64,000 nucleotides of DNA from an uncultured bacterium (GCA_963744715.1 CAVUUR010000007.1:1-64000); one strand, 5' to 3'. Positions 1 to 64,000 are shown, counted from the stretch's first letter. Notes: generated by a model not told the origin, from the letters alone. A program made the numbers and translations.

Positions 1-1186
1 AATGTAACCATGCGGGATCTATCAAAAAAGGTTATGAATGCGCAAATGTCGGTTGGTGCATTCTTGATAGTATGCAAGCAATTGGGCTTGGCATTGTGGA
101 TGGGGTGATTGATGGGGTTTCTTCTAACAGCTTCCTACGCGCTAGAACATCCCATTGAACTTATTTTAACCGCCATTTTTACCAAGCCGATGCTCATCTA
201 TCATCTTACAAAATTAGCATGCTATGGAACCGCTGCTGCTTTTAATAAGTTATCAACTATTGATTATGAACACGCAACCGCTGATGACATTATCAGTGCA
301 TTGAATAATTCAAAACAAGCCTGCCTTCAAAGCTATCTTGATCTTAGGCAGATGCCACTTTAGAACGCTGGTCTCCCGTGGCGTTGCTTTTGCTACTGAG
401 TTTTATTTGCAAGGCAAACTCAACAAAGGAATCTCAAATTTCTATGAAAAAACGCAAGAAATTGCTGTTAAACGTGCCCACCAATTCGAGATAAAACTTC
501 TTGCACAAAATAATCTTAAACCTGCCCTCGCTAAGGTCTCTCATGCAAATCAACCGGCTCAAACATTAACACCACAAGAACACGTTTCGCACATCTCTAA
601 TAAAAATTCTTTAATTGAAACCGTTCCTCCCAAACAACTACCTCGCCTCGGACATTATTTTGATCCGGAAGGTCTGCCACTCAAAGCGCATATTATTGAG
701 GCTATTGAAAATGGCAGAGCTTATTTCCAAAAAAAGATCGCTCAGTATGAACAAAAAATTGTCAAACGAATACAAGAACTCCTCAAACAACAAGGCATAG
801 AATATACTCAACCTATCACGATCAAAGATATTGACTTCAAACATACTATTGTTGGGGATTGGAACCCACGAAGAAAACAACCAACTGGTCTACATTCAAC
901 TCGCTGGTGTTCTGAAAAGATAAAAGAAAATACAAGAGATACTTCCAATATATTTAAGGCTCAATGGCAAGCTAATGGAGTATCAAAAAAATCAACTTTT
1001 TTCCCTGCCTCATGGGATGAAAATAAAATTGCTGACGCAGCAATAGAAGCTTTACAAAATATTATCGAAGTTGCGGTTAATGATGATGGATTAAAAATAT
1101 GCGGACAAACATTAGAAAAAATTAAAATTAAATTTTATATCGACAATTTTGGCACAATAAAAACTTTTTATCCAAAATTAGATTAA
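1..1186 (+). CDS. Polymorphic toxin 1 (5'-truncated by window; two apparent 1-nt insertions near 118 and 360), C-terminal bacterial EndoU-type RNase
   Basis: Frame from nt 3 reads CNHAGSIKKGYECANVGWCILD and, through ORFs 109-363 and 338-1186, aligns closely with 37987-39930 up to SNKNSL. Tip has HTIVGD...TGLH...KKSTFFPASW...IKTFYP, typical of EndoU_bacteria toxins. Confidence 0.8.
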
Positions 1187-1195
1187 GAGAAATTT

Positions 1196-1558
1196 ATGAA
1201 TATATTACAAATAAAAAAATTAAGTAATCATAATTATTATACTATTGGAAAAGAAACGAATAAAAAAATAGAAATGCTTGGTGAATTTTTACTCGATTGT
1301 GGAAGCGACATTGAAGAAATTAAAATAATGATTAATAAATATAATACTTATAACGCCGACGCAACTCTTACAGAATTACAAGGTAATATCATTACTATTA
1401 GCCACTGGTACTTGAAGTACACTGACTTTATAATACAATACGATACCTTTCTTAAGTTCCTCGATGAATGGAAAGCGGTATACCAAACAAAACCATCAGA
1501 AATTATTATTACTATGGATGATCAGCATCAACATTTTACTATCCAAGCAATTCCTTGA
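1196..1558 (+). CDS. Putative cognate immunity protein of toxin 1
   Basis: 120-aa AT-rich ORF starting 9 nt after the toxin stop; decayed paralog at 42020-42380 in another toxin locus. Confidence 0.7.
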   Translation: MNILQIKKLSNHNYYTIGKETNKKIEMLGEFLLDCGSDIEEIKIMINKYNTYNADATLTELQGNIITISHWYLKYTDFIIQYDTFLKFLDEWKAVYQTKPSEIIITMDDQHQHFTIQAIP

Positions 1559-16117: not shown

Positions 16118-16137
16118 TCAATAGAAAGATCTAAACT

Positions 16138-16809: not shown

Positions 16810-16829
16810 AAATTAATAGAAAGATTTTA

Positions 16830-23216: not shown

Positions 23217-23234
23217 AGCAAATCTCCTTATTTC

Positions 23235-23987: not shown

Positions 23988-24005
23988 AGTAAATCCCCTT
24001 ATTTC

Positions 24006-24758
24006 TTACGCAATCCTATCTTGATGTAATTGTAAAACATTCTGAGCCATCAACAGACGCTTGGAATTTTTTGGATAGCCCATATGCTCGTCGTCTCCAT
24101 CTTCTTCAAGACACGCTGCCGAGAATTCCAGCAATCCTTGAGCATAATCTTTATCTTTTGATGCAGTTAAAAGGTCTGCGCGTTGTTCAGTAAAACAAGT
24201 ATAATATGCCAATGCTTCTTCAATATCCTTTTTATCACAATCTGATTTTTTGCTTAATTCTTCTAATGAATATTTCGTCACATAATCATGGTTGATAATA
24301 TGCTGCACTTCATGCCCAATAATAAAACGCAAAACTAAATCAGAATAATGATTGCATTCCTTCTCATCAATAAAAATAGTGTCATGACCAGCTGCGGCAG
24401 GGGAGTAATAATAATATGCTTGTAATTTTATCGTGGCAGGATCAACGTTAAAATCCTGCAATACCGAATGTATAATGTTGCGTACATGCGCAGGAATTGG
24501 TTGGTCAGACAACGGCACTTCTATTCTTGGTTTTACCAAAAGATTATCTAAAAAATTTTGACATTTTTCTTTGGTAATACCACATTGTTCTAATTTTATC
24601 CACGCCTGTTTTTCCAATGAATCTAAATAATCAATTGTTTTTTGATCTATTTGACGATTGGTTTTTATCGTAGCAATTGGCATTTGTTGTGTTATGCCAT
24701 AAACAAATAAACTGCCTAACCCGTATAAAAAAATAAATAATAATTTTTTAGTTATCAT
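24006..24758 (-). CDS. M48-like zinc metallopeptidase, array member 3
   Basis: GHEVQH, EQRAD; close duplicate of member 4. Confidence 0.8.
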   Translation of the reverse strand: MITKKLLFIFLYGLGSLFVYGITQQMPIATIKTNRQIDQKTIDYLDSLEKQAWIKLEQCGITKEKCQNFLDNLLVKPRIEVPLSDQPIPAHVRNIIHSVLQDFNVDPATIKLQAYYYYSPAAAGHDTIFIDEKECNHYSDLVLRFIIGHEVQHIINHDYVTKYSLEELSKKSDCDKKDIEEALAYYTCFTEQRADLLTASKDKDYAQGLLEFSAACLEEDGDDEHMGYPKNSKRLLMAQNVLQLHQDRIA

Positions 24759-24772
24759 AATAAATCCCTGTT

Positions 24773-25540
24773 TTAACATTGTTGCAACGTACTATTATGA
24801 TTTGATTGCAAAATATCTTTGGCCATTAACAATCGCTTTGAATATTTTGGATGGGTTATCCCACCCTTTTTCTCATCTGACGTATCGCCAGCAATGACTC
24901 TTTCCATGTATGCTACATACCCTCTGGCATAGCGTTCATTTTTAAGTGCCGCTTTAATATCAGCACGCTCCTCGGTAAAACGAGAATACATATTTAAAGC
25001 ATGTTGTAGCTCTTCTTTTGTTTTTTGATTATCACACTGCTTCATAGCATACTTTGTTGATCCATCTTCATGGATTACGTGTTGAATTTCATGACCTATA
25101 ACAAAATACTGCTCATCAGGTGTTAGTGTATTAAATCGCAATTCATTAACATAAACGCCAAATTCAGTTGCACCAGCACAACAATGATGATTTATTGGTA
25201 TAACGCTAATCCTGTTTTGATTAACACCAAAATCGTCTAAAACAGTACGTACTATTGTTTCAGTTTTTGGAGATACCTGATCTTTTGCCTGAGCGCGAAC
25301 CTCTTCTTTTAAGTCATCAATATAGATAGATTTATGTTTTTCGCATTCTTGTACCTTTATACCAACATCATTCAGTGCACGCCATGCTTTATCTTCATAA
25401 TCTTTGAGATAATCGATATAATTAGCGTGTTGTCCGATAACAGGTTCGATAGAATTGGAATTATGCAAAAGCACTTTTCCTAGAACTATTCCAATTATTA
25501 ACACTAGTATGATTTTGAATGTTTTTTTATTATGTATCAT
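24773..25540 (-). CDS. M48-like zinc metallopeptidase, array member 2
   Basis: GHEIQH, EERAD, THP. Confidence 0.8.
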   Translation of the reverse strand: MIHNKKTFKIILVLIIGIVLGKVLLHNSNSIEPVIGQHANYIDYLKDYEDKAWRALNDVGIKVQECEKHKSIYIDDLKEEVRAQAKDQVSPKTETIVRTVLDDFGVNQNRISVIPINHHCCAGATEFGVYVNELRFNTLTPDEQYFVIGHEIQHVIHEDGSTKYAMKQCDNQKTKEELQHALNMYSRFTEERADIKAALKNERYARGYVAYMERVIAGDTSDEKKGGITHPKYSKRLLMAKDILQSNHNSTLQQC

Positions 25541-25553
25541 AGTAACTTCCTTT

Positions 25554-26300
25554 TTAACAAGACTGAATTAAGATGTTGTTTTTCCACTGATGGAAAATAT
25601 CTTCCGCCATTTGTATTCGTTTTGAATTTTTAGGATGCGTTATTCCTGGATTATCACCGACTAATAACTTTTGCTGAGCATATTCCACGTACCCTTGTGC
25701 GTATTCTTTATTTTTTAAGGCTGCTTGAATATCAGCACGTTCTTCTTTAAAACGGGCATATACGTTAATCGCTTCATCTACTGATTTACCATCAATAGGA
25801 CGATCTTTAATGCGCTCATTTAAGACTTCTCTCATTAAGAAATCTTGATTTTTCATATGTTGAAGTTCATGGCCGATTACAAACTTTTTTGCTTTAGGAG
25901 AAAGCTCATTAAAAATTTTTTCATTAACGAAAATAATATTATGATCTGTTCTTGCCGATGTATTATCATTACATGCTGTAATAATGATAGTTTTCGGATC
26001 AACGTCAAAATCTTTTAATACTGAACGAATTAAAGTGCAGTTATCTAGTGAAACGAATTTTTTATCTACGTTACTGCTTTTTGTAAGATTTTTACGTAAC
26101 TCTTGCTTTCTTTGTTCACATTCTTCGCGTGTAAGATCATATGAATGCGCGAGGCTATTCCATGCATTAACCTCAGATGCTTGTATATAATCAACGTAAT
26201 TTACACGACCAGGAATCGAACCTGTAGGTATCTTTCCTATCGCTATGCCAAGTACTAAGGCTACACCCATACTGGCTATTCTTCTGTAATTGTAATTCAT
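25554..26300 (-). CDS. M48-like zinc metallopeptidase, array member 1
   Basis: GHELQH, EERAD, THP; closest to member 5. Confidence 0.8.
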   Translation of the reverse strand: MNYNYRRIASMGVALVLGIAIGKIPTGSIPGRVNYVDYIQASEVNAWNSLAHSYDLTREECEQRKQELRKNLTKSSNVDKKFVSLDNCTLIRSVLKDFDVDPKTIIITACNDNTSARTDHNIIFVNEKIFNELSPKAKKFVIGHELQHMKNQDFLMREVLNERIKDRPIDGKSVDEAINVYARFKEERADIQAALKNKEYAQGYVEYAQQKLLVGDNPGITHPKNSKRIQMAEDIFHQWKNNILIQSC

Positions 26301-29470: not shown

Positions 29471-31048
29471 TCAGGAGAATGCAAATCCACCTTGTACCCA
29501 AACGCCCCATTGATTGAAGGCGCTCTTGTTGTTGCTACCACAGAATTCAACTTCACCACCTACGCCAAGATATGGCATATAATCACAAGTTTCCCAGGTA
29601 TAAGCAAAGTTGGTAAATACTTTATGAGAAACGGCGCTTGGTGCTGCCGCTGAATCCGGGTTCAAGCTCGCTGTGGTAATAGTAACCGCAGGAGTTTCTG
29701 CCACTGCCGGTTCAAAATTACCGTTAATGGTAGTTAAACTTTGGGTAGAATTATCGGTTGCTCCAGGTCCAGGAGGTGTTCCCAGTGCTGTTGTATCACC
29801 TTGCACGCCAAAGGTATTAGGTAAAATATTACCGATTATTTTAACTTTATCCTTTGAGCGACCCCATACGTTATAACCTATGTCAAATGAGAATCCGCAA
29901 CTGGTATAATCAAACATAAGTGCGGCATCGCCATGAACATCGTTTTGAACGTTACATTCGAGGGTTGTTACGTTTGGACCAAAGAGAACTTCTCCAGCAT
30001 ACGCAGTAGCAGGAGATGCTGCACCATTAAATCTCTTGAGCAAGAGATAGCGGCTACCCACACCATTGGCTGTTAAGTCAAACGTACGTCTTTGGCGCGC
30101 TCTGAATGCATGATAAGCATAACCTTCTAACCATACACTGAAGGATTGGTCACAACCATTATCCCAGAGTACATAACTAGCGGTAATACCACCACCAACT
30201 TCTACGTGTTTACCATTACCTAACACCGGTTCAAACAGGAATTCGCCTTTTGGACGGTTACCGGTAGGTGCAATAACGGCAGCTTGAATACCGAAATGGC
30301 CACATTCGCTAACCCAGAAATTATAACCAAGAATTAAGGTAATATCTGCTACACCAGCTTTGCTGTGTTTTCCGTCCATACGAGCAAATCTCAATGGTTC
30401 CTTGATAGCAGGAAACACTGCTGGATTTAATGTTTGTCCATTAACCGCAGCAAGAAGATTGCCTCCATACGGTGAAGGGGCTACAGCAGCATTTCCTAAG
30501 GCATCTGCAGCAATGGTGGTACCCGGTGTTATAGTACTTGCTGTTAAACGTAGATCCCAGCGAGTCCAGTTAACCGGAACGTCAATTTGGAACCACAATC
30601 CTTTTATCCATTCATCTAATCCAAGATAAAAATTAATATCCAAGACAAAATTTTCTACGCGTGGATTAAATATTAACGTACCATTGAAATCGTCGTTAAG
30701 GAAAAAGTTTCGTCCAAAGATTGTTGTAGTAGGACTAGCAGTACCACCAGTATTTGCAGGACCGAAGGTCATAGTTGGTGTTCCGTTGAAGGACAAGTAT
30801 TTTGCCAAGTCGTGTCCACGAAATGTTCTTCCATATTCAGCGACAATTTTAAGATCAGCACTCAGGCAATCTTCATCAGGAAAATAACGGTGCCCAACAT
30901 AGCCAGCCATCCAGCGAGCCATATTAGAACCTTGTGATCGTCCAGAAAAGAACGATTTCCCTATAATCTTTGGGGTTTCTGCTGCATTGAGAGCAGGAAC
31001 CGCGCATAGCAAGGCTATGCTAAAAAAACGTTTAAGCGTTTGATTCAT
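29471..31048 (-). CDS. Large outer-membrane beta-barrel protein, candidate major OMP
   Basis: Signal peptide, alternating aromatic strands, ADI...APTG motif, C-terminal VQGGFAFS; own RBS and terminator. Confidence 0.7.
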   Translation of the reverse strand: MNQTLKRFFSIALLCAVPALNAAETPKIIGKSFFSGRSQGSNMARWMAGYVGHRYFPDEDCLSADLKIVAEYGRTFRGHDLAKYLSFNGTPTMTFGPANTGGTASPTTTIFGRNFFLNDDFNGTLIFNPRVENFVLDINFYLGLDEWIKGLWFQIDVPVNWTRWDLRLTASTITPGTTIAADALGNAAVAPSPYGGNLLAAVNGQTLNPAVFPAIKEPLRFARMDGKHSKAGVADITLILGYNFWVSECGHFGIQAAVIAPTGNRPKGEFLFEPVLGNGKHVEVGGGITASYVLWDNGCDQSFSVWLEGYAYHAFRARQRRTFDLTANGVGSRYLLLKRFNGAASPATAYAGEVLFGPNVTTLECNVQNDVHGDAALMFDYTSCGFSFDIGYNVWGRSKDKVKIIGNILPNTFGVQGDTTALGTPPGPGATDNSTQSLTTINGNFEPAVAETPAVTITTASLNPDSAAAPSAVSHKVFTNFAYTWETCDYMPYLGVGGEVEFCGSNNKSAFNQWGVWVQGGFAFS

Positions 31049-32186: not shown

Positions 32187-33755
32187 TTATTTTACTTTAC
32201 GCGCTTTGAGTAAATCGACCGCAAATAAAAAACCTTGATTATTTTGTTCCGTGGCTTGCTGTAACGCCGTTTTACCCTTTCTATTTTTTATTTTCATACT
32301 TGCTCCCCATTCAAGCAGAAACTTTGTAATATCAGAGGTTTTTGCGTAATGCAATGGTGTATTACCTTCAACATCCTGAATATTCATACGTGCGTTATGC
32401 TTTAATAAAAATGCTGTTGTTTCGGGTAAACTTTTTTCAACTGCATAAAACAGCAATGTTTTCATACTCCCATCACGCACATTGATAAAATCGATAAAGG
32501 TTTTGGAGGATTTTTTATAGAAATCCTCTAATTTCTTAAGTGCTTCTTGATCAAAAAGTTCATTCTCTTCTTTTGTCGATGGTTGAAAATCATCTATTAG
32601 ATCACGCAGGTTAATAAAAGAATTCCAAATATTATCATCGGCAAGATTAATGAATGGTTTTCTGTTTGCTTTAAAACGCTTCAATGATTTCTGTGGATTT
32701 TCCGCCAAATAAAACCAGGTTCTGGGCGAAAGAACAGGAATAAATGATGCTTCTTGATCAGTTACCCTACTATCAATTCTAAACGCTTTATCCGTACCAA
32801 GATCAATAACTTCACTACCACCAAACTTATCAACTAACAATTGTGCAACTGCCCTACAATGATCTCCGCCGGCATAAACGATGGTATGTTTATAGAATTG
32901 AGCAAATATTTTTATAAGAAATTCTATATCGGCTATGTCTAGAAATGACACAATCATTTTTGATACTTTTTCTTCTTCCTTATTTTTGCTCATTATATCT
33001 CTGGCTTCTCCAATTGTTATATTGGGATTTTGCAAAAACATTTTGTTTAAATATCTATACAACGGCTGTATCTTTTCTTTGGTATAAACAAGCCACAAAT
33101 CAGATAAAGTCTTGTAATAATTTTTAAATACGGATGCTTTAACATCTTTTAAATCTTTTGTAGCTTCAGATACGGTTCCGAGTAATGCTTTAAGTTCATC
33201 AAACTTAAAAAATTCTTTTAAAGGAACGTCCAATAAGTCTTCTTGCTGCAACATACTAATCGAAAAGGCATCTGGGCTTAGATATAATAATCCCTTGACC
33301 TCCAAACGGTATGTATCGCCATTGTTAAATACGATCGATTTGCCTTTATCTACAGAAAATTCACTTTCCAATTCATTACCATAAAGCATCCAATGAATTA
33401 CAGGATCATTAATGGTTTTCAATTTCCAAGTACTGTAGGGTTCATGTTCCCATAAAAGTTGTATAGGTGCGCCTTGTTTGGCCAATTTTCTTAACGTAAT
33501 CAGTAGTGTTCGTTCTGCCGTAGTAAAAGCGCCTTTTTCTTCCTTTGAAAGATACGCCTGTTGATTTCGGGATGGATTTTTAACCAATTCATGCAACGGT
33601 TCATGAAAATCAGAAATTAAATCAATAACTTTAATAATAACATTATTCTTATCGATGATAATAATTCTTTTAAATTCAAAAGGGAGCGCTCTTATTTCCT
33701 GCAAATTAAGGGCGTTTATTACCATAAGTACTACTAATTTTTTACAAAAATTCAT
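32187..33755 (-). CDS. Secreted protein with C-terminal ankyrin repeats, paralog B
   Basis: Start MNFCKK identical to paralog A; TLLFYA, GNTPLHYA, GKTAL ankyrin motifs. Confidence 0.85.
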   Translation of the reverse strand: MNFCKKLVVLMVINALNLQEIRALPFEFKRIIIIDKNNVIIKVIDLISDFHEPLHELVKNPSRNQQAYLSKEEKGAFTTAERTLLITLRKLAKQGAPIQLLWEHEPYSTWKLKTINDPVIHWMLYGNELESEFSVDKGKSIVFNNGDTYRLEVKGLLYLSPDAFSISMLQQEDLLDVPLKEFFKFDELKALLGTVSEATKDLKDVKASVFKNYYKTLSDLWLVYTKEKIQPLYRYLNKMFLQNPNITIGEARDIMSKNKEEEKVSKMIVSFLDIADIEFLIKIFAQFYKHTIVYAGGDHCRAVAQLLVDKFGGSEVIDLGTDKAFRIDSRVTDQEASFIPVLSPRTWFYLAENPQKSLKRFKANRKPFINLADDNIWNSFINLRDLIDDFQPSTKEENELFDQEALKKLEDFYKKSSKTFIDFINVRDGSMKTLLFYAVEKSLPETTAFLLKHNARMNIQDVEGNTPLHYAKTSDITKFLLEWGASMKIKNRKGKTALQQATEQNNQGFLFAVDLLKARKVK

Positions 33756-33878
33756 ACTTTTAACCTCATCACTATTTATTAAAAAAAATAATTTCAGTTT
33801 TAATAATAATACGCCACTAATTTTAAAATCAACAATCTTTTTAAAACCAACATTAATTACTACATGGTGACTGTTTTT
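33475..33878. repeat. About 400-bp near-identical direct repeat (5' end plus upstream region), copy 1
   Basis: Matches 35126-35529 at an offset of 1651 bp with few mismatches. Confidence 0.9.
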
Positions 33879-33891
33879 AAATAAAAATAGG

Positions 33892-35406
33892 TCAGGTTCT
33901 TTTTTCCGTAGCTTGTTTAGAAGCCATTTTACCCTCTTTATTTCCGATATCTGATTTTGTGCCGTGCTCGAGCAGAAGCTTTTTAATATCGGATGTTTTC
34001 GCATAATGCAATGGCGTATTGCCTTCAACGTCTTGAATATTCATACGTGCATTATGCTTTAATAAAAATGCTGTTGTTTCGGGTAAACTTTTTTCAACTG
34101 CATAAAACAGCAGTGTTTTCATACTCCCATCACGCACATTGATAAAATCAATAAAGGTTTTAGAAGCCTCTATATAAAAGTTCTTTAACTTCTGCAGCGT
34201 TTCTTGATCAAAAAGTTCATTCTCTTCTTTTGTTGATAGTTGAAAATCTGCCATGAGATCTCGTAGGGCAAAGAAGGAATTCCACATATCATCGCCAGCC
34301 AAATTAATGAATGGTTTTCTGTTTGCTTTAAAACGCTTCAATGATTTCTGTGGATTTTCTGCCAAATAAAACCAGGTTCTTGGCGAAAGAACAGGAGTAA
34401 ATAATGCCTCTCTATCAGTTACCCTATCATCAACTCTGAATGATTCCATGGTAGTACCAAGATTAACAACTTCAATACCACCAAAGTTATCTCGCAATAG
34501 TTTTGCAATTTTTCTACAATGATCTCCTCCTGCGTAAACGATAGTATGTTTATATGATTGAGCAAACATTTTTATAATAAGTTCCACATCAGCAATTTCC
34601 ATAAATGAACCAACTAATGTTGATAGTTCTTCCTCATTGTTTTGTTTGCTGATTATACTTCTAAATTCTCCGAGTGTCATAGTCGGGTTCAGTAATAACA
34701 TTTTATTAAGATATCTATACAACGGCTGTACCTTTTCTTTGGCATAACTACGCCACAAATCGGATAAACGCTCATAATAATCTTTAAATACGGATACCTT
34801 AACATCCTCCAAATCTTTTGTAGATTTGGATGCAGTAGCTTTGTTAATAAATTCAACAAATTTTTTTAAAGGAGTATCTAGTAAATTGTTTTGTTGCAAC
34901 TGTTGATCAGTAAATTCCGCTGATAATAAATATTCTGGATCAGTTTTTACATTGATACGGTAAGTATCGCCATTGGTAAAAACAATAGACTTACCTTTAT
35001 CCGCAGAAAATTCATCTTGTAAAGTATTACTATAGAGAGTCCAATCAGTTCTTGGATCATTAAGAGCTCGTGATTGCCAATTACTATACGGCGTATGTTC
35101 CCATAAAAGCTGTATAAGCATACCCTGTTTGGCTAATTTTCTTAACGTAATCAGTAATGTTCGTTCTGCCGTAGTAAAAGCGCCTTTTTCTTCCTTTGAA
35201 AGATACGCCTGTTGATTTCGGGATGGATTTTTAACCAATTCATGCAACGGTTCATGAAAATCAGAAATTAAATCAATAACTTTAATAATAACATTATTCT
35301 TATCGATGATAATAATTCTTTTAAATTCAAAAGGGAGCGCTCTTATTTCCTGCAAATTAAGGGCGTTTATTACCATAAGTACTACTAATTTTTTACAAAA
35401 ATTCAT
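33892..35406 (-). CDS. Secreted protein with C-terminal ankyrin repeats, paralog A
   Basis: Same architecture; SDFHE and IVYAGGDHC motifs. Confidence 0.85.
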   Translation of the reverse strand: MNFCKKLVVLMVINALNLQEIRALPFEFKRIIIIDKNNVIIKVIDLISDFHEPLHELVKNPSRNQQAYLSKEEKGAFTTAERTLLITLRKLAKQGMLIQLLWEHTPYSNWQSRALNDPRTDWTLYSNTLQDEFSADKGKSIVFTNGDTYRINVKTDPEYLLSAEFTDQQLQQNNLLDTPLKKFVEFINKATASKSTKDLEDVKVSVFKDYYERLSDLWRSYAKEKVQPLYRYLNKMLLLNPTMTLGEFRSIISKQNNEEELSTLVGSFMEIADVELIIKMFAQSYKHTIVYAGGDHCRKIAKLLRDNFGGIEVVNLGTTMESFRVDDRVTDREALFTPVLSPRTWFYLAENPQKSLKRFKANRKPFINLAGDDMWNSFFALRDLMADFQLSTKEENELFDQETLQKLKNFYIEASKTFIDFINVRDGSMKTLLFYAVEKSLPETTAFLLKHNARMNIQDVEGNTPLHYAKTSDIKKLLLEHGTKSDIGNKEGKMASKQATEKRT

Positions 35407-35698: not shown

Positions 35699-37243
35699 AT
35701 GCACATATCATACTTAGTTATCTTTTTTACACTGTTATTAGCTCCCTATTCTTTCAGCAATGCTTCTGATGCCAGCTTGAATGAACCCTTAAAGGATTTA
35801 TCAACCTACATTGGCCAAGGATTACAAGAAGGAATTGCCGGCGGTGTTTCCACCGGTTTAGCAGAAGGAATACCTGCTGCAATCAATGCGGGTGCAGAAT
35901 CCTTTAAAAATCAGTTTGAGGAAACCGGCGATGCTCATCAAGGGATTTCCAATATTTTTAAGTCTCTGGGTAATCAATTTGAACACCATGGTGAGGGGCG
36001 TCATGCCATGCAAAATTTTTTCGGCGCCGTCAGTGATGAATTGGATGAAAACGGTCAAGGCAGAAAAATGGCATTAAATGCTGCCGACACCACCAGCGCG
36101 TACGTTAATAATGTTGGTAAAACCGTTGGCTCTGTTATTACAAACATAGTAATAAAAAATTCACTTATTACGGTTCTCAGCGCCTTGGGAATTGCTACGA
36201 TGTGGTATGGTTCTAAAGTATTATGGAATTTCATTGAGCGAAAACTTAAACAACCGACTCTTATCATAGAATCTTCACGTAAAAATGTTTTTCAACGCAT
36301 GAAAGGTGCATTTACCCGTAAACAAGAGCCGGTTAAACGTCCTATGATTTTTGAACAAGCAACACAAGAGCGCTTACAAGCACTTATTGAAACGACTAAA
36401 AATATTAATACCAATATTAAACGTGGTAAAAAAAATATCGCCTACAGAAATCTTTTGCTCTACGGGCCTCCCGGAACTGGTAAAACATTATTTGCGCAAC
36501 AATTAGCGCAACAATCAAATATGGAATTTGCTATAACAAGCGGTGCATCATTTTCTAAAAAAGGTGCTCTTGAAGCAATGGATGATCTTTTTGCCTGGGC
36601 AAATAAAAGCAAGGGACTTATTTTATTTATTGATGAGGCAGAATCACTGATGCCGGATAGAAACAATCTCAATCCTGATAGTGATAGTTATCGCATATTT
36701 ACGAGCTTCCTTAATTATACCGGAACGCGCAGCAATAGATTTATGATTGTTATGGCAACCAATCGTTTAAACGTCATTGATGAAGCGATGCATCGCCGTA
36801 TTGATGATTTAGTTGAGTTGTCACTCCCAGAAATTTCGCAACGAATTGCTATACTACAAATATACCGTGACGTTATTCTCTTTGACACCAATAATAATGA
36901 ACACGCCTTTGCTTATTCTGCTAAAAACATTCTAACCAATGCCAAGATAGAACAGATTGCAGCGCAATTAGAAGGTTTTTCAAACGGTGATCTTGAAGGG
37001 CTTATTAATATGATAAAAACCGATGCCGACAGTACTCCCGCTGGCATTATAACGGAATCCATTGTTGATACCGCCGTTACGCGAATGCTCATTAAACATG
37101 CAACCCTCAAAAAAATAGAACTGCCTAACAATAAGAATAACCAAACCACAAACTACTGGATAACGATAAAAAGCTATGTAGGAAGTTTTTTTGATTGGGT
37201 ATGTTCTTTCATACAATGGCCATTTGCAACACAAAAAAAATAG
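35699..37243 (+). CDS. AAA+ ATPase resembling eukaryotic ATAD3, with signal peptide and TM helix
   Basis: RNLLLYGPPGTGKT, LFAWANKSKGLILFIDEAE, FLNYTG, ATNR...RRID; pre-AAA ERKLKQPTLIIESSR. Confidence 0.8.
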   Translation: MHISYLVIFFTLLLAPYSFSNASDASLNEPLKDLSTYIGQGLQEGIAGGVSTGLAEGIPAAINAGAESFKNQFEETGDAHQGISNIFKSLGNQFEHHGEGRHAMQNFFGAVSDELDENGQGRKMALNAADTTSAYVNNVGKTVGSVITNIVIKNSLITVLSALGIATMWYGSKVLWNFIERKLKQPTLIIESSRKNVFQRMKGAFTRKQEPVKRPMIFEQATQERLQALIETTKNINTNIKRGKKNIAYRNLLLYGPPGTGKTLFAQQLAQQSNMEFAITSGASFSKKGALEAMDDLFAWANKSKGLILFIDEAESLMPDRNNLNPDSDSYRIFTSFLNYTGTRSNRFMIVMATNRLNVIDEAMHRRIDDLVELSLPEISQRIAILQIYRDVILFDTNNNEHAFAYSAKNILTNAKIEQIAAQLEGFSNGDLEGLINMIKTDADSTPAGIITESIVDTAVTRMLIKHATLKKIELPNNKNNQTTNYWITIKSYVGSFFDWVCSFIQWPFATQKK

Positions 37244-37986: not shown

Positions 37987-39930
37987 ATGCGAGCATTTTA
38001 TTTTTTGATTATACTTTGGGCTATTTCTTGTTGTGCACAGGAAATATTCTCGAGTCCTCCAACCGGTTTTCTTCTCGCTCACTACAAAGCAAATGATGTT
38101 CCATCGCGGCATTCTGAATGCGCTGATCGTTTGCACGCCATAGTTAAATCAACCGATCGGCAAAAATCTTATGAATTGGATGAACAGCGCCGGCGCATAC
38201 CACAACCACGGCTTGCATCCTTATCTCTTTCTGAACAATACCGTACTCTGATCAATCAAGCCTACGCAATTGACCAATCAGCACCACAAGAAGTACTTAA
38301 CATTGTACAAGAACTTGTCGATGTTAATGCGTATATCAATGATCCATGTGCAACGGTTGATTTTCTGATAACGCGTGCCGATGGCAGTCAGCCAATTCGT
38401 ACTACTTTTTTTAACGAGCAAGGAATAATTAAAGGATTTTCTCGTGCAAACAAAAATATTGCGCAGCATCCTGAAGCATGCCGTGCATTTATGTATTGCG
38501 ATGCATTATTTGCCGATTCACAAGGAATTATCCATGAAAAATCTCGAACAGCGCTCATCGCCATCAATGAATATTTGAGTTCTGATGAACTTCCCGGACC
38601 TCCCGGAAGTTATGCAAGTGTGCTCTATGATTTGTTACGCACCTGCCATCCAGAATTAGAAACTTCTTTGCAACATGAATGCGATGAAGTTGCAATAACC
38701 TTTCTTAATTATGATGAGCCCGATAATGGATACAATAATCTTTCCGCAGCGCGAGAACAAGCAGCAAAAGTATATCACGAAGAACACGGTGCAAAACAGC
38801 AATGTTTCGTTCAATTACATGCAACATCGCGCGCTCTCCTGCGCGAGCATAACTATGATTATCGCAAATTTACGTTCATCAATGGTAATGCTTTGCAACG
38901 CCAACTCCTTGATGAAACCGGACAGCTGATTAATCAGATTGCAAGTTATTCCGAATTATACAACGAGCCAATTGCACATTTGTTAGTTGACATGGCCGAT
39001 GTTGCTGCCGAATGCAATCATGCAGGTTCCATCAAAAAAGGTTACGAATGTGCAAATGTCGGTTGGTACATTCTTGATATCATGCAAGCCGTCGGGCTTG
39101 GCATCGTAGAAGGTCTTATTGATGGTGTTCGCTTAACTGCAACATATATCAAACAACATCCCATTGAATTTGCATTAAGTGCTATGTTTACAAAACCAAT
39201 GCTTGCGTATCATCTTGCAAAATTGGTCATACGCAGTGCATCAGTTGCTTTTGATCTGTTATCAACCATTGATTATGAAAATGTAACGTTTGATGATGTG
39301 CTAACCTCCATCGATAATGCAAAGCAAACTTGTTATACCGGGTATCAAACGCTCAGGAAAATGCCACTCAAAACATTGGTTGCCGGCGGCGTTGCGTTTG
39401 CCACTGATTGTTACTTGCAAGGTAAATGCGCTAAGGGCGTTTCCGCGTTTTATGAGAAAACACAAGAAATCTTACTTAAGCATGCACAAAAATTTGATTG
39501 GAAAGCCTACTTTAACGATCATCTCAGACCCGGCTTTATTAATGTTTTTCCTCGAGGTAAGCAACCGGTTAAAAACCCCCAAGAAAATTTTGCGCAAACC
39601 TCGAATAAAAATTCACTTGAAGCACCAAAAAACATACTAAAAGTTCATACTATGAAAGAGTTTTTTGAAAATACTCTTTTTGGACAGGAATTAAAAAATA
39701 AGGTAATAAAGACAAACTATTTTTATAAAAATCAGCCAATTTACAAATTACAACAAAAAGTACAAAGTCATACCATAAGCAAAGGTGATTATTTTTATCT
39801 CGATAATTTACATTTTGATCATATAGAAGTTTTTGATCAAAGTGGCTCAATGAAATCAGTGCTAAATTTTGATGGAACAATTAATATAGAAAAAACAAAA
39901 AAAGCTTACGGAAGAACTATTAAACTTTAA
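37987..39930 (+). CDS. Polymorphic toxin 2, full length, signal peptide; C-terminal putative colicin E3/BECR-like RNase
   Basis: Signal MRAFYFLIILWAISCCAQE; scaffold shared with toxin 1; AT-rich tip GDYFYLDNLHFDHIEVFD...VLNFDG...KT..A.GR.I resembles tips of MafB/CdiA-type toxins. Confidence 0.75.
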   Translation: MRAFYFLIILWAISCCAQEIFSSPPTGFLLAHYKANDVPSRHSECADRLHAIVKSTDRQKSYELDEQRRRIPQPRLASLSLSEQYRTLINQAYAIDQSAPQEVLNIVQELVDVNAYINDPCATVDFLITRADGSQPIRTTFFNEQGIIKGFSRANKNIAQHPEACRAFMYCDALFADSQGIIHEKSRTALIAINEYLSSDELPGPPGSYASVLYDLLRTCHPELETSLQHECDEVAITFLNYDEPDNGYNNLSAAREQAAKVYHEEHGAKQQCFVQLHATSRALLREHNYDYRKFTFINGNALQRQLLDETGQLINQIASYSELYNEPIAHLLVDMADVAAECNHAGSIKKGYECANVGWYILDIMQAVGLGIVEGLIDGVRLTATYIKQHPIEFALSAMFTKPMLAYHLAKLVIRSASVAFDLLSTIDYENVTFDDVLTSIDNAKQTCYTGYQTLRKMPLKTLVAGGVAFATDCYLQGKCAKGVSAFYEKTQEILLKHAQKFDWKAYFNDHLRPGFINVFPRGKQPVKNPQENFAQTSNKNSLEAPKNILKVHTMKEFFENTLFGQELKNKVIKTNYFYKNQPIYKLQQKVQSHTISKGDYFYLDNLHFDHIEVFDQSGSMKSVLNFDGTINIEKTKKAYGRTIKL

Positions 39931-39935
39931 TACTT

Positions 39936-41081
39936 ATGATAAATGAAATAAAACAATTACTATCACTTTTGAGCAATTTTACACAAAAATATGCAACGAA
40001 TACGCAATTTCTTACAAAAAATATTACAGAAAAGGAACAAGAAGCTGATGAACTTATAATACTATATAAACAACTTGATGAAAAAATTACATCTTTTAAG
40101 AAAAGCCTATCTGATAAAAACAAAGCCGTTGATGTGTTGGTTGAAATAGCGGTTCTTTACTCCTATTATGTAGAATATTTTGAAAGCATTAAAGATCTCG
40201 TAACTAATATTATTCAGTCAAACCAGGAAGATCAAAAAAATACACATGAGATAGCATCTGATATTTTATACAGGAAACAATATGTAACCTATGATACAAA
40301 ACGTGACCTCTATCTCTTAACGTACACGTCCGAAAATATAATTATTAATTATAATTATAAAGGCATCGCACTATTAAATAATGATTTGAAAAATTCTCGT
40401 GATATTTTTTTATTTCAAGGAATTTCAATTACCCATGTCTATAAACACTTTTTTTATCCTCATTTAATAGCTTTGTATTGTGCAGAAAATCAATGTATTA
40501 TACAGCTTGATTTAAATAATTTTTATCCCAAAAATATACCATTACCTTTTAAGCAAGATGATGTCTTTCTTTCATCAATTTATTTCTGGATGGAATCGAC
40601 CTTAATAATTGCCACAACTCATGCATTATTTTATGAACTAAATATGGAATTAAAAACGATTCAACCTATTGCTCAACATTATATAAAAAATCGTTTTGAA
40701 CTTTTATATGAGTTCACTCAATCTGTTTTACAGAATAATAATGTATATGATATACATTCAGATGATTATACATTCATCATTAAAGATACAATCAAAAATA
40801 CGTTTTCACGGATTGATATGATTGCCAATACTATCACAAATACGTTGTATTATAATGCAGAAGTCCATGATATTAGATACGATAATGGATTTTTCATGTT
40901 TATTCATGAAAATTTTATCGTAATTGAACATGATAAAAAAATTATTGCAACAATACATGCGGCTCAAGGCCGAAGATTTTTACGTGCATCGTTTCTAGAT
41001 AGCTACACAAAAATCGTAGTACTTAGTGATTCGCAGGCCAATTATCATTGCGCATTAGCATTATACGATCTTTGTTTATAA
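39936..41081 (+). CDS. Putative cognate immunity of toxin 2 (N-terminal helical domain plus beta-rich extension)
   Basis: Starts 5 nt after the toxin stop; the first ~100 aa resemble 41094-41393 (YSYYVEYFESIKDLVTNII vs YSYMVWHFEQIDNLIKKIL). Confidence 0.55.
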   Translation: MINEIKQLLSLLSNFTQKYATNTQFLTKNITEKEQEADELIILYKQLDEKITSFKKSLSDKNKAVDVLVEIAVLYSYYVEYFESIKDLVTNIIQSNQEDQKNTHEIASDILYRKQYVTYDTKRDLYLLTYTSENIIINYNYKGIALLNNDLKNSRDIFLFQGISITHVYKHFFYPHLIALYCAENQCIIQLDLNNFYPKNIPLPFKQDDVFLSSIYFWMESTLIIATTHALFYELNMELKTIQPIAQHYIKNRFELLYEFTQSVLQNNNVYDIHSDDYTFIIKDTIKNTFSRIDMIANTITNTLYYNAEVHDIRYDNGFFMFIHENFIVIEHDKKIIATIHAAQGRRFLRASFLDSYTKIVVLSDSQANYHCALALYDLCL

Positions 41082-41093
41082 CTATGGAAATCC

Positions 41094-41393
41094 ATGGAAA
41101 AATTATTATTTAAAACTATCCAAGTTTTAGAAATTTTAAATAAACAGATACCTTATCAAGCAATAACTAAACAAGAATTCAATGAAGAGAAAGAAAATAT
41201 TGGGGATCTTTTGGTATTACAACAGAAAATTGATGGATTACTAGAACACCTTACAAACAAAGAAGTTGTACAGAATAAAGATTTAGTCAACGAATATCTT
41301 GTTCATATGTACCTTAACTATTCGTATATGGTATGGCATTTTGAGCAAATTGATAATCTTATAAAAAAAATACTTACAACGTACCCAGATTAA
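41094..41393 (+). CDS. Putative immunity paralog
   Basis: 99-aa helical ORF related to the N-terminus of 39936-41081. Confidence 0.55.
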   Translation: MEKLLFKTIQVLEILNKQIPYQAITKQEFNEEKENIGDLLVLQQKIDGLLEHLTNKEVVQNKDLVNEYLVHMYLNYSYMVWHFEQIDNLIKKILTTYPD

Positions 41394-41429: not shown

Positions 41430-42032
41430 TTGATATGCAGTATGCAAAGTAAAAAAATGCCTAACTATACACTAGATATCTTCAAAACTACTCCAATCCC
41501 ATATTCTTGGGCTACTTTGTACGTTGGAAGACAATTACACATACTTGACTGGAAACAGCTCGAACGTTACGCAATCGAATATTTAGAGCAAAATCCAGCT
41601 TGCAATGATCCTTCTATTTCTGAACTTGCATATGGCGTTAAAGAGATAGAATCTGATGAATTACTCGTCGCAATAGTTAGAAGCATCAATTCAACTATGG
41701 AAAAAGATGGCCCGATTTGGAATTTAGAAAAAAGAAAATGGCGCTATTGTTTATTACAAGAATTAAAATTCTTATTACCAGATCCATTTAATTTTTCTCA
41801 ACAATACCGTATAATTTACGCTGATTTTGGATATCCAGAGGATATGTGGGATTTTTTATATAAAATTTCGCCAGATGATAACTATACTGATTCCATCGAA
41901 AACAATATAAAAATTGATGAGAGAAAGCTGGATATATTTTTAGAAAAAGAGAAAAAGAAAATAAATGAAAAATCTCCAGATTGGCCTCTATCTGATTATT
42001 ATCCACCAATTGAGTCGCAATGCAAACTTTAA
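41430..42032 (+). CDS. DUF2247-like protein, putative orphan immunity
   Basis: SWATLYVG, RKWRYCLL, IYADFGYPEDM motifs. Confidence 0.65.
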   Translation: MICSMQSKKMPNYTLDIFKTTPIPYSWATLYVGRQLHILDWKQLERYAIEYLEQNPACNDPSISELAYGVKEIESDELLVAIVRSINSTMEKDGPIWNLEKRKWRYCLLQELKFLLPDPFNFSQQYRIIYADFGYPEDMWDFLYKISPDDNYTDSIENNIKIDERKLDIFLEKEKKKINEKSPDWPLSDYYPPIESQCKL

Positions 42033-42380
42033 AATTAGTAAAAATTCAACGAAGCTATAGTGAATTTTTTACCAGCAACAGAAGAGCTATGGACACTTGG
42101 TGAATTTTTACTTGATTGTGGTAGAAACGTTGAAGATGTTAAAACAACTATTAAAAATTACGGAGATTATAATGCTCATCCTACTCTGGCTGATTTGCAA
42201 GGTAATACTATTGTTATTGACCATTAGTGTGCGACTTCTCCGGATTTTGTCATAAAGTATGACACCTGTATTAAATTTCTTGATCAATGGGAAACGCTAT
42301 ACGAAAAAAGACCGTCAGAAATTATTATTACTATGGATGATCAGCACGAACATTTTACCATTCGAGCAATTCCTCAATAA
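42020..42380 (+). pseudogene. Decayed paralog of the toxin 1 immunity gene (not in ORF track)
   Basis: MQTLKLVK…(frameshift)…LGEFLLDCG...QGNTIVIDH*...KFLDQW...PSEIIITMDDQHEHFTIRAIPQ; TAG at 42225-42227 replaces the Trp codon of 1196-1558. Confidence 0.9.
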
Positions 42381-61655: not shown

Positions 61656-62324
61656 CTAGTCTTTTAACATTTTTTCAATAACATCGATAACCACGTGATT
61701 CGGATAATTATTTTGAACGTAATGCCGGAAAAAAGATTTAGGATTTATATCATCGTACAGCAATTGCTCAGTGATAGGCCCCTTTATATTTTTTAGGCCC
61801 ATTCTTAATGCAGCACGTGCTTGAACAATTTTATTTTGCTCGAAGTAATAAGTACCAAGATCGATATAATGCTGAACGTAATCAGGAAAAAATTCTATGG
61901 CATTTAATAATGATTGTTCATATTCATTTTTATCATTTTTTTTATAATACCATGATTTTGAAAGCTCAATCATCGATTGCATTTCTTTATTACAAATTTC
62001 AAGCGCACATAATTTTTTAAAAAGTACAGCATCAACCCCATCAACCCATATGTCCTGCAAATATGCCAGCAATAAAGCAATTGAAGAATCACTATAATGG
62101 TTTAAAAAACAGGTTAAATATCTAATACTTTCATCGAGACTGTTAAAGGGTCCTATATACAAAGCAAGAGCAAAACGTATTAATATTTCAGAGTCATAGG
62201 GATGTTGTGTAATACAATTTTCACAATCTTTTTTGAGTATTAAAATATTGTGCGGTATCATATTTGATTTTTTATAGTTTATATAATATTGCTCTAATAG
62301 CCGTATTAAGTCATTTTTTCTCAT
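61656..62324 (-). CDS. TPR-like helical protein in toxin 3 locus (putative orphan immunity)
   Basis: AT-rich; L..AI...P.YV..Y..LG..Y TPR pattern; second gene after toxin 3. Confidence 0.5.
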   Translation of the reverse strand: MRKNDLIRLLEQYYINYKKSNMIPHNILILKKDCENCITQHPYDSEILIRFALALYIGPFNSLDESIRYLTCFLNHYSDSSIALLLAYLQDIWVDGVDAVLFKKLCALEICNKEMQSMIELSKSWYYKKNDKNEYEQSLLNAIEFFPDYVQHYIDLGTYYFEQNKIVQARAALRMGLKNIKGPITEQLLYDDINPKSFFRHYVQNNYPNHVVIDVIEKMLKD

Positions 62325-62379
62325 AATATTCTATTACATATACGCAGCAATAATATTATTAAAAATAAAATTATGCTAA

Positions 62380-62679
62380 CTATGAACAATAATCCATTAT
62401 CTCAGGAAAATCATTATCATTCAATGCTCTGATAACTTTAATAATTACGGGGCCCAGCATTTTTCCATCTATACCAGGAACATTAAAAATTTCTTCAGGA
62501 TTCGTTAAATCAATGGTTTTTATAGGGTTAACAAATTTTTTCGTATTATAGAATGTTATATTTTTTTTATTTAAGTTAATACTTATATAGAAATTTTTTT
62601 CATGATATTCATCTTCAACTAAATAATAGAGGTTATTGTTTTCATTTAAAATTTTTCTGATTTTTACATAGATTCCCAT
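62380..62679 (-). CDS. Putative cognate immunity protein of toxin 3
   Basis: 99-aa AT-rich ORF starting 8 nt after the toxin stop; ends DFPEIMDYCS. Confidence 0.65.
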   Translation of the reverse strand: MGIYVKIRKILNENNNLYYLVEDEYHEKNFYISINLNKKNITFYNTKKFVNPIKTIDLTNPEEIFNVPGIDGKMLGPVIIKVIRALNDNDFPEIMDYCS

Positions 62680-62687
62680 AAAGCATC

Positions 62688-63998
62688 CTATAATTGATCA
62701 TCCCAATTATATATTTTTTTACTTTCATAATGTGCTGTTCGCCAATCTATATTATTTTCCATAATGATAGATTCAGCTAATTCATGCAGTAGTAATCTTA
62801 GATCTGATTGAAAAAAATTTCCATCGATTAATCTTTTCCAAGCCTGCGCCATGTCTATATCTGGATCAAAACGTTTTACGCCCCCTGCAAGAATATGCTC
62901 TCTATAAAAAATATGATCTTTTATTTTTTTTATTATATTTTCTGGAATATTGCTATTTTTAGATATACTAATTGTATCAGTTGTTATAGCTCTAATGTAG
63001 TCATAAAAGTTTATCGCTTCTTTCTCCAATTTCATAAATTTTTCAGCAGATACTCTATCTATGATTGCACCAAATCGCACATCGGGAATTTTATTATTCA
63101 TAGAGTTAACAATTTTATTTAGTTCGAGTAACTCTAATGATTCATTTAATATTGTATTTATTTTTTCTTCTGTAACTAAAAATTTATTAAAGGCTCTTAA
63201 AGGTTTTAAACGTATATCGACATTTTGAGAGAATGATTCGAGTGGTATCTCATCTAAAGTGTTAATAATGCCAAGCTCATTCTCTAATGCTTTGCCCAAG
63301 CTCTGTATTTGTGCGCGTCGCATTGGGTGGCCAGCAATACATTCGGTCTCCTCCAGTACACGCATAGTACGACATAAATTACTTAATACATTTTTAAGGG
63401 GCTTTAAAGTAGTAATTAATTTATGCTGCAAAAAACCGCTAGTGATATAATGAATTCCTAACGTAAATTTTTCTTCTCGTGGCAAATTCATTAAAAAAGT
63501 GCATAATTCTTGCTCTTCTTGCAAATGGTCAAAAATGCTGTCCCAATGCTGTAATGCATAAGAGCTATCATAATCAACGGAAGCTAATTTTCCTAAAGAC
63601 CATAAAACCTTACCAGTCCCTTTAATAATATTATAAGCCGTCGCAATTGGATGTCGTATGTCATTACTGAGATCAATAGCTACTTTAACGGTTTCTAATG
63701 CTCCAATGCTTATGTATTTACATATCGATATGCCAGATGCTAAACAGTGAATGCCCAAATCCTGCTTAGGCTGCGCACCCTTTTTCATGTATGATAAATA
63801 AAGATGCTTAATGCGATTGTTAGTTTCTCGCACGATAGCAGATTGCAATTCATTCAATTGATTGATTAAACCATTTGAATAAGTATCTAACTGATTATTT
63901 TTTAGTTCAACTTCTTGTAAAATATTTTTTACAACGCCAAGTAACGCATGGTCACTAATCAGGTCTTCCAATACGATAGGATCAAAATGTATTTTGTG
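62688..63998 (-). CDS. Polymorphic toxin 3 (5'-truncated by window), tip with RFDPD...MAQAW.RL..G...D..LL.HELAE...AH motif
   Basis: Frame open to the window edge; remote scaffold similarity to toxins 1/2; tip pattern recalled from variable C-termini of other polymorphic toxins. Confidence 0.65.
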   Translation of the reverse strand, partial: HKIHFDPIVLEDLISDHALLGVVKNILQEVELKNNQLDTYSNGLINQLNELQSAIVRETNNRIKHLYLSYMKKGAQPKQDLGIHCLASGISICKYISIGALETVKVAIDLSNDIRHPIATAYNIIKGTGKVLWSLGKLASVDYDSSYALQHWDSIFDHLQEEQELCTFLMNLPREEKFTLGIHYITSGFLQHKLITTLKPLKNVLSNLCRTMRVLEETECIAGHPMRRAQIQSLGKALENELGIINTLDEIPLESFSQNVDIRLKPLRAFNKFLVTEEKINTILNESLELLELNKIVNSMNNKIPDVRFGAIIDRVSAEKFMKLEKEAINFYDYIRAITTDTISISKNSNIPENIIKKIKDHIFYREHILAGGVKRFDPDIDMAQAWKRLIDGNFFQSDLRLLLHELAESIIMENNIDWRTAHYESKKIYNWDDQL

Positions 63999-64000
63999 GA

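Follow-up and report, generated by a model that had tools for sequence, protein, structure and literature searches.

Colicin E3's cytotoxic domain (PF09000; PDB 1jch, 1e44, 4v5k), counted among the BECR folds, and the C-terminal toxin of CdiA from Enterobacter cloacae (CdiA-CT ECL; Ntox21, PF15526; PDB 4ntq) both cut 16S ribosomal RNA (rRNA) at A1493/G1494 (PMC9086364; published sources are cited here by accession). Here we describe a gene that resembles such systems, encoded in a 64,000-nucleotide stretch of DNA from an uncultured bacterium (GCA_963744715.1, CAVUUR010000007.1:1-64000), hereafter the window. The open reading frame (ORF), at 37987..39930 on the plus strand, encodes 647 amino acids (aa). 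It is genuine and has the appearance of a polymorphic toxin: a conserved trunk followed by an exchangeable C-terminal tip. The kind is known; the new part is a lineage-wide family with an unnamed trunk domain. We consider it likely that the product is a Sec-exported antibacterial ribonuclease (RNase) toxin aimed at bacteria within the same protist host, with immunity provided by adjacent small proteins.

Among described systems, colicin E3 is the best fold match to this tip. In both, a D-x2-H...E motif sits on a similar sheet, and the domain is basic and C-terminal; unlike colicin E3, this tip has no sequence or Pfam match, places one residue more between His and Glu, and has an extra invariant His. 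The neighbouring genes likewise differ in encoding helical and beta-rich proteins without a Pfam match, and the receptor and translocation domains of colicins were not detected. CdiA-CT ECL, a 16S RNase serving as a polymorphic tip (PMC9086364), also resembles the tip model (Z 4.8, root-mean-square deviation (rmsd) 2.7, 65 residues aligned), and true Ntox21 tips occur on other members of the trunk family, but this protein has no PF15526 match, haemagglutinin repeats or VENN motif. In length and layout it is like MafB of Neisseria (PMC9970974); unlike MafB, it has no DUF1020 match and no mafA-like partner upstream, its copies are scattered over the genome and not gathered in islands, and its variable region precedes the conserved core.

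With the S8-PTS/ABP toxins, which are Gram-positive and have a BetaH domain, the family shares a predicted Sec signal peptide, an unnamed N-terminal domain, tips of the ColD, ColE3, Ntox21 and Ntox35 kinds, and a basic toxin domain (PMC9424270, PMC12582261). ABP toxin entry needs an amphipathic helix together with a cationic tip (PMC12582261), and these toxins would offer the best functional analogy for entry. In contrast to them, the core described here is predicted to be almost wholly helical, the hosts are diderm and intracellular, and the co-encoded serine protease that ABP toxins need had no conserved equivalent among 25 upstream ORFs at 74 loci. The pairing of Ntox19 with Imm38 (DUF2247), tabulated in PMC3482391, also has a counterpart in the same genome: the tip of the paralogue C7:81112 is of the D, H, D, E, HxxF type and is followed by DUF2247, whereas the Imm38 gene at the present locus is an orphan without that tip.

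A trunk shared by paralogues with unrelated tips

The window is the beginning of contig C7 of a 1.26-Mb genome, 86% complete. A purine-rich, Shine-Dalgarno-like stretch lies immediately 5′ of the ATG of the ORF. The whole protein returned no significant family from Pfam and NCBIfam, neither the whole protein nor the tip had a significant match by sequence in Pfam, NCBIfam or PDB, and a full-length homologue search recovered only 3 proteins. The motifs quoted in the initial annotation of this DNA are present in the ORF, which that annotation had called the only full-length toxin. This is true of the window only, as a profile of the trunk core matched six long ORFs in the source genome: C7:37987 (the present gene, 647 aa), C7:81112 (642 aa), C7:143329 (676 aa), C9:77063 (676 aa), a 671-aa ORF on C11 whose EndoU tip is a few residues short, and a divergent member of 767 aa discussed below.

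The paralogue C7:81112 is 66% identical to the present protein across aa 1-535, with an unrelated tip. Their nucleotide similarity (75%, blastn) and the high GC content stop together, at ~39562-39566. GC is 0.41-0.42 at aa 1-491 and 0.27 at aa 526-647, as the initial annotation had indicated in reporting a marked AT rise at the tip. Because the DNA similarity ends and GC drops at this position, we place the crossover point near base 39566, in a linker (39460..39621, +) at about aa 526. The same two boundaries make ~530 aa, initially assigned to a delivery region, the right length for the trunk; the new domain within it spans only ~235 aa (aa ~255-491), not the whole.

The conserved trunk core

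The family-defining part of the trunk is an unnamed conserved helical core (aa ~255-491; 38749..39459, +), delimited by profile, alignment and model. As a lone query, aa 234-448 found relatives in 51 of 261 genomes of the phylum; a 34-row core profile gave 262 matches, in 107 of the 261 genomes (41%) and 75 of 145 genera. Only four of 95 core protein matches carry an organism name, all Babeliales or Dependentiae. Seventeen loci came from named genomes, six of them Babeliales or Dependentiae and nine just 'bacterium'; the other two are titled 'uncultured Pseudomonadota', and the phylum restriction was searched non-exhaustively, both of which count against a family confined to one phylum. The profile did not match the LXG, RHS and CdiA carriers of the tip, and no core relatives were found in the viral contigs or plasmids searched.

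Conserved columns run from R256 to K480 and include R256, G300-N-x-L-Q304, E310, N344, G347, W360, G372, G376 and H391-P392; no column is invariant in a 75-row alignment, and the conserved positions look structural. In the model, a helical bundle with two short strands is confident at aa ~255-365, and further helices follow a Gly-rich stretch. Neither Pfam nor NCBIfam has a curated-level match to the core, and PDB has no specific one. Fold searches returned generic helical bundles only, with Z reaching 7.6 but no match standing out and Foldseek giving E 0.15 at best, so we assign it no fold and claim no fold novelty. A PDB profile match to a kinesin-light-chain-like repeat protein (E 3e-5) and an Atlas match to PT-TG (0.88, 90 shared features) are weak leads only.

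In other family members the start of the core varies between residues 131 and 897, and aa 19-250 of the present protein are lineage-limited; the new domain therefore appears to be these ~235 aa, behind a variable region. The proposal that the N-terminal region defines a new delivery domain thus stands for an unnamed conserved domain of that length alone, whose role in delivery is suggested by the architecture. Parsed in this way, the N-terminus consists of a signal peptide, a lineage-variable part and the helical core.

Within the core, Gly-rich and moderately hydrophobic helices (aa 355-422; 39049..39252, +) form a candidate membrane-entry element. A hydrophobic translocation hairpin consists of two adjacent segments, each with a 19-residue hydropathy of ~1.6 or more. 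What had been likened to such a hairpin is a conserved segment (G372, G376, H391-P392), though not a clear transmembrane hairpin. Its hydropathy maximum of 1.45 is below the usual transmembrane level, and the predicted local distance difference test score (pLDDT) is <50 across most of aa 371-422 in the core model; both speak against a membrane-entry role. Family-wide, the median hydropathy is 1.32, and 13 of 86 members reach 1.6.

Tip exchange across the family

As in polymorphic toxins, the family joins a conserved N-terminal trunk to variable C-terminal toxin domains. We scanned 79 tails (43 + 36) at curated cut-offs, leaving out those of <40 residues (first batch) or <=60 residues (second), 3′-open tails and the 72-aa tail of locus L057. 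Twenty-eight scored above the cut-offs (17/43 and 11/36), falling into EndoU (10), Ntox17 (7), Ntox35 (5), Ntox21 (4), Colicin D (1) and Cytotoxic (1); tail lengths are mostly 133-307 aa. When tips were clustered for 73 of the 86 distinct core-bearing ORFs (ORFs whose core is nearly complete and whose tail is closed and >=120 aa long), they resolved into 21 clusters. Unrelated tips sit on near-identical trunks at L001/L007, L017/L086, L090/L091 and L030/L045, as they do in the present gene and C7:81112. On a trunk tree that has several long branches, the tip class of this gene (5 rows) changes 4 times, with at least 3 changes forced by supported branches. Two results temper the picture of free toxin exchange: tip labels are clustered on this tree beyond chance (31 changes vs 40.6 when shuffled), and 51 of the 79 tails belong to no curated toxin family.

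A second toxin chassis is present in the same lineage, with a hydrophobic N-terminus, a PT-HINT-like domain, the same tip pool and small downstream genes (C2:54851-56050 (+), C9:143360-142251 (-), L064, L065, L072, L079, L080 and L082). The PT-HINT-like domain was found in six of eight scanned second-chassis proteins (Pfam E 6e-4 to 2e-9), a scan outside which the own-genome pair lies; the ORFs of that pair, on C2 and C9, have their first 60 aa in common and differ in their tips.

A predicted colicin E3-like tip

The tip of the present gene (aa 546-647; 39622..39930, +) is a basic domain (pI 9.5) with a predicted colicin E3 fold and a predicted RNase activity. A HMMER search of 1.84 billion representatives yielded 456 homologues at E<=0.001, and in almost all of the 150 matches listed, read by eye, the match reaches the C-terminus or near it. 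Among these 150, D606, H612, E614 and G630 are present in every sequence, Y604 and K636 in 149, R643 in 147 and H609 in 146, a conservation pattern that marks Y604-L-D606-x2-H609-x2-H612-x-E614 (39796..39828, +) as the candidate active-site motif. LXG, RHS, PT-HINT, PT-VENN, haemagglutinin or S-pyocin domains occur in 12 of 37 carriers scanned from the same 150. One cluster of 168 bears the name of a Bacillus (Bacillus subtilis) LXG toxin, and the tip is also found on a Metabacillus LXG gene and within a Duffyella contact-dependent inhibition (CDI) orphan array; it was not found in the phages searched. Its spread over such varied toxin carriers makes the tip a mobile toxin domain, one that no Pfam family covers.

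The tip was modelled with high confidence (pLDDT 95). When the model was compared with 48,161 chains, the best match was the colicin E3 RNase (Z 6.8, rmsd 2.9, 82 residues aligned), followed by CdiA-CT of E. cloacae, with all others at Z <=3.7. In a second structural look the top five rows were all colicin E3 (Z 6.8-7.5), four of the five aligning 77-82 residues at rmsd 2.5-2.9, with a sequence identity of just 13-17%. The initial suggestion of a colicin E3-like tip is supported by this fold match (Z 6.8-7.5) and also by a genomic link: a beta-rich protein encoded downstream is common to this tip and to PF09000-matching tips, which makes the connection to colicin E3 independent of the model.

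Several results weigh against this assignment. The top Z of 7.5 stays below 8, the tool's caution line. With Foldseek, the check proposed at the outset, colicin E3 came out at E 0.3-0.9, which is not significant. Pfam and PDB sequence searches give no link between the tip and colicin E3, and a profile comparison with a PF09000-positive tip aligned 17 columns at a probability of 15%. The motif is spaced D-x2-H-x4-E here against D55-x2-H58-x3-E62 in colicin E3, and the conserved second His of the colicin E3 fold, H72 (D55/H58/E62 plus H72 in the numbering of PMC3482391), has no obvious counterpart, H612 being extra. PF09000 itself did not match this protein at E<=1 (whole) or E<=0.05 (tail), PF09000 clusters appear among its Atlas features at only 0.88-0.89, and the PF09000-positive tip of locus L008 has no PDB sequence match. 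We read the tip as a separate colicin E3-like family, not a PF09000 member, and on the strength of the modelled fold predict that it cuts rRNA like colicin E3. Two other candidates were set aside as relatives: MafB2 of N. meningitidis B16B6 has an RNase A fold with His335/402/409 (PMC9970974), and SRLase1 has a different motif (R70, D72, H85, H97 and N99; 10.64898/2026.09.18.752725).

Candidate immunity genes downstream

In 70 of 82 trunk members an adjacent same-strand gene begins within -45..+50 bases of the toxin gene, and specific tip-to-neighbour pairings recur across the family. Among 41 downstream genes scanned, we identified DUF2247 (2), CdiI_N (1), CdiI_ImmP (1), DUF6980 (2) and a transposase (1), so that 4 of 41 belong to named immunity families. 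At the present locus the first downstream gene (39936..41081, +) encodes a likely fused immunity protein of 381 aa, with a helical domain (aa 1-100) and a beta-rich domain (aa ~122-369). It is followed by a gene for a 99-aa acidic helical protein (41094..41393, +; pI 5.1; profile E 9e-20), which is the best candidate for the cognate immunity protein. Charges are complementary, the tip having a pI of 9.5 vs 4.7-5.1 for the neighbour proteins.

The beta-rich part of the fused protein is 30% identical to the gene behind the PF09000-positive tip of L008. Such beta-rich domains are encoded directly behind three colicin E3-like tips, at L008 (which exceeds the PF09000 cut-off), L036 (which falls below it) and L116 (from the same tip cluster), and also behind tips of the present class at L074 and L078. 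The helical part is a divergent copy of the 41094-41393 domain (profile E 6e-8). Members of this family of ~100-aa helical proteins are also encoded behind related tips in the phylum, and another follows the Metabacillus LXG toxin (E 1e-14), as judged with a profile built without the 41094-41393 gene and without the Metabacillus gene; remoter tips of the class have DUF6980 behind them instead. Helical candidate immunity genes occur in tandem, by twos or fours, with two subtypes alternating and some of the genes fused (L055, L057, L058, L063, L075 and window 39936-41393); the two subtypes may act as a heterodimer.

Two further genes fit sibling toxins, not this tip. An orphan DUF2247/Imm38 gene (41457..42032, +; start at 41442 or 41457; Pfam E 2.6e-18) encodes a product 44% identical to that of C7:83046, which stands behind the Ntox19-like tip of C7:81112. 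Next to it is a broken orphan immunity gene of the EndoU-tip type (42020..42380, +), with a frame change near its 5′ end and an internal stop at 42225-42227, 60% identical over 93 aa to a gene at 1196-1558 of the window. Orphan EndoU tips are also present in the source genome, at C7:145678-146753, C9:79497 and C11:6871. The locus thus shows two further features of polymorphic toxins: orphan tip or immunity cassettes and, by genetic linkage, tip-specific immunity genes directly downstream, the domains of 39936-41081 together with 41094-41393 being the likely cognate immunity.

N-terminus and predicted export

The protein begins with a predicted Sec signal peptide (aa 1 to ~18; 37987..38040, +), for which a lipoprotein signal is unlikely. 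Its hydrophobic N-terminus, noted at the outset, is borne out by a Kyte-Doolittle 19-residue value of 1.81 at aa 3-21. Hydrophobic N-termini occur in 63 of 67 trunk-family members, vs 154 of the 249 ORFs of >=400 aa in the source genome, our background here and for Cys counts, and 49 of 249 internal windows. The difference suggests enrichment and is no proof of export, as hydrophobic N-termini are frequent in this genome anyway, which weakens the case. The lipobox consensus is [LVI][ASTVI][GAS]C; the AISC option raised initially is off consensus at its first position, and a lipobox is found in only 2 of 67 family N-termini. The Cys-scattered character of the trunk is real, with 12 Cys at aa 19-526 (2.4%, a level reached by 7% of the background ORFs), yet no Cys of the protein falls at a conserved position of the 75-row alignment.

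Behind the signal peptide lies a lineage-variable region (aa 19-254; 38041..38748, +), a candidate receptor or specificity part, for which phmmer found only own-genome paralogues and two genomes of the same family (L018 and L035). There is no conserved upstream partner gene: the 25 same-strand upstream ORFs at 74 loci fall into 24 clusters. Two secretins were matched in the source genome; VipB, TolC-type proteins and VirB4 had no match in this 86% complete assembly, nor did the TpsB/ShlB transporter, for which control genomes were equally silent. Two gspD copies are described in all TM6 genomes (PMC4776705), and Chromulinavorax secretes vesicles (PMC6561590). Because no dedicated transporter is encoded alongside the toxin, Sec followed by type II secretion, or by outer-membrane vesicles, would be the probable export route.

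Of the upstream neighbours at this locus, one encodes a small secreted protein and another an AAA ATPase (35699-37243, +). The N-terminus of the ATPase is hydrophobic, and the protein weakly matches mitochondrial ATAD3 in the latter's N-terminal domain (E 0.003, below cut-off), of interest since some Dependentiae associate with mitochondria.

Proposed mechanism and alternatives

We propose a mechanism in six steps. The predicted signal peptide would pass the protein through Sec, and it may then leave the periplasm via the type II secretion system or outer-membrane vesicles. The variable region at aa 19-254 might set which cells are bound, the most speculative of the steps. Judging from the architecture, the core, probably through its flexible Gly-rich helices, would carry the basic tip over the target membrane, where the tip would cut RNA with D606, H609, H612 and E614, most likely at the 16S decoding site. 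Recombination near aa 526 swaps tips along with their immunity genes, as the exchange pattern across the family shows, and orphan immunity genes would protect against relatives' tips. The likely targets are other bacteria, kin included, in the same protist host.

The alternative that fares best keeps this delivery and changes the substrate, making the tip a tRNase or a non-specific RNase on a colicin E3 scaffold. The extra invariant H612, the changed His-Glu spacing, the lack of a clear H72 counterpart and the 13-17% identity would all suit it, and related folds attack diverse RNAs (PMC9086364). However, both structural neighbours above background are 16S rRNases, and the beta-rich neighbour protein is common to PF09000-type tips; we regard a different substrate as unlikely. 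It is quite improbable, in our view, that the protein is instead a host-directed effector that cuts the bacteria-like mitochondrial rRNA or the cytosolic rRNA of the protist, its immunity genes guarding the producer only. Such a role would suit the intracellular Dependentiae, among which Chromulinavorax multiplies against the mitochondrion of its host and releases nucleases and vesicles (PMC6561590), and amoebal endosymbionts do use toxin domains as host effectors (PMC3482391). Host-directed versions, though, are without immunity genes (PMC3482391), whereas here immunity genes of both cognate and orphan types stand in arrays, and swapping extends over 21 tip clusters. Attack by relatives is indicated because orphan immunity to relatives' tips makes no other sense.

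A surface-tethered, contact-dependent toxin, lipoprotein or MafB-like, in which the trunk is an anchor or stalk and not an entry module, would account for the Cys15 kept in three in-genome paralogues, one with a consensus lipobox, for the presence of signal peptidase II and for the MafB-like length and layout. Against it stand the scarcity of lipoboxes in the family (2/67), the missing upstream partner of MafA or CdiB type and the absence of DUF1020, haemagglutinin or VENN matches, and we hold it to be very improbable. That the cassettes are selfish toxin-antitoxin units attached to an ordinary secreted protein, without delivery to other cells, can be dismissed almost entirely: the tip and downstream genes are AT-rich and foreign-looking and several copies are broken, but many unrelated toxin families are fused in frame at a steady distance from one core across 75 of 145 genera, which chance would hardly produce; the N-terminus, too, is hydrophobic in most members.

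Other loci in the window and source genome

The divergent family member (C7:64994-62688, 767 aa; core profile E 7e-23) crosses the window edge; with two small downstream genes it occupies 61656..64000 (-). One of these genes (61656-62324 (-) and 62380-62679 (-)) is TPR-like (E 3e-5), as are genes behind other tips of the trunk family; the tip of the divergent member has no Pfam family. At the contig start a paralogous locus (3..1558, +) consists of a broken trunk piece, an EndoU tip ending at 1186 (PF14436, E 3e-11) and a likely immunity gene (1196-1558). A 5′ piece of the 37987-39930 toxin (92% identical; 90% as an N-terminal piece) runs off the start of contig C12 (C12:373-2), and this piece and the broken paralogue at window 1-1186 are probably a single locus that the assembly has divided at a repeat. 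Three near-identical trunks, at C7:143326-147292, C9:77060-80092 and C11:9525-6470, each have their own EndoU variant, with orphan tip and immunity cassettes downstream.

Judged from ORF lists, the window also holds tandem arrays of similar secreted-looking genes: three copies at 15422-17480, five at 22398-26300 and two at 32187-35406, the last pair ending in what we take to be ankyrin-like repeats. The genes at 10188-11168 (-) and 11680-14204 (+), presumably lepA-like and gyrA-like, are each broken over several ORFs, which hints at assembly indel errors or decay; breaks in toxin cassettes of this genome therefore need caution. Several long secreted proteins that resemble one another and have an aromatic residue at the end (4889-6169 (-), 29471-31048 (-), C7:65659-67047 and C12:1678-386) possibly form a lineage-specific outer-membrane barrel family, and one of them is directly upstream of the C12 toxin piece.

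Discussion

To the known polymorphic toxins our analysis adds a trunk domain that is widespread among very small bacteria whose home is probably the inside of protists. It also adds a colicin E3-like tip family, as yet unnamed, that occurs on Bacillus LXG, RHS and CdiA toxins as well, and two candidate immunity families, likewise without a name. We found no description of this toxin system in a literature search that had supplements and subscription journals outside its range, and in which the tip family may be listed under another name. The term 'TM6' is absent from the examined part of Zhang 2012 (PMC3482391), as is 'toxin' from the corresponding parts of two TM6 genome papers (PMC6561590, PMC4776705). 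Published accounts portray Babelota (Dependentiae/TM6) as reduced parasites that depend on a host, and interpret the proteins they secrete as host-manipulating (PMC6561590, PMC4776705). The EndoU genes of Chromulinavorax, read as host-degrading nucleases (PMC6561590), may instead be tips of the kind described here.

Six long trunk copies and orphan cassettes in a genome of 1.26 Mb, together with a core present in 41% of the phylum genomes searched, indicate bacterium-versus-bacterium conflict inside protists, which we did not find described in the literature searched. More tentatively, and with some doubt, the core could be a new, self-sufficient membrane-entry module peculiar to Babelota. Set free inside a protist by type II secretion or in vesicles, it would deliver any of at least 20 nuclease tips to the interior of co-infecting bacteria and perhaps of the host's bacteria-like mitochondrion. 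If so, this module would be the main weapon by which a host cell is kept to one minimal-genome parasite, and would represent a new route of protein delivery.

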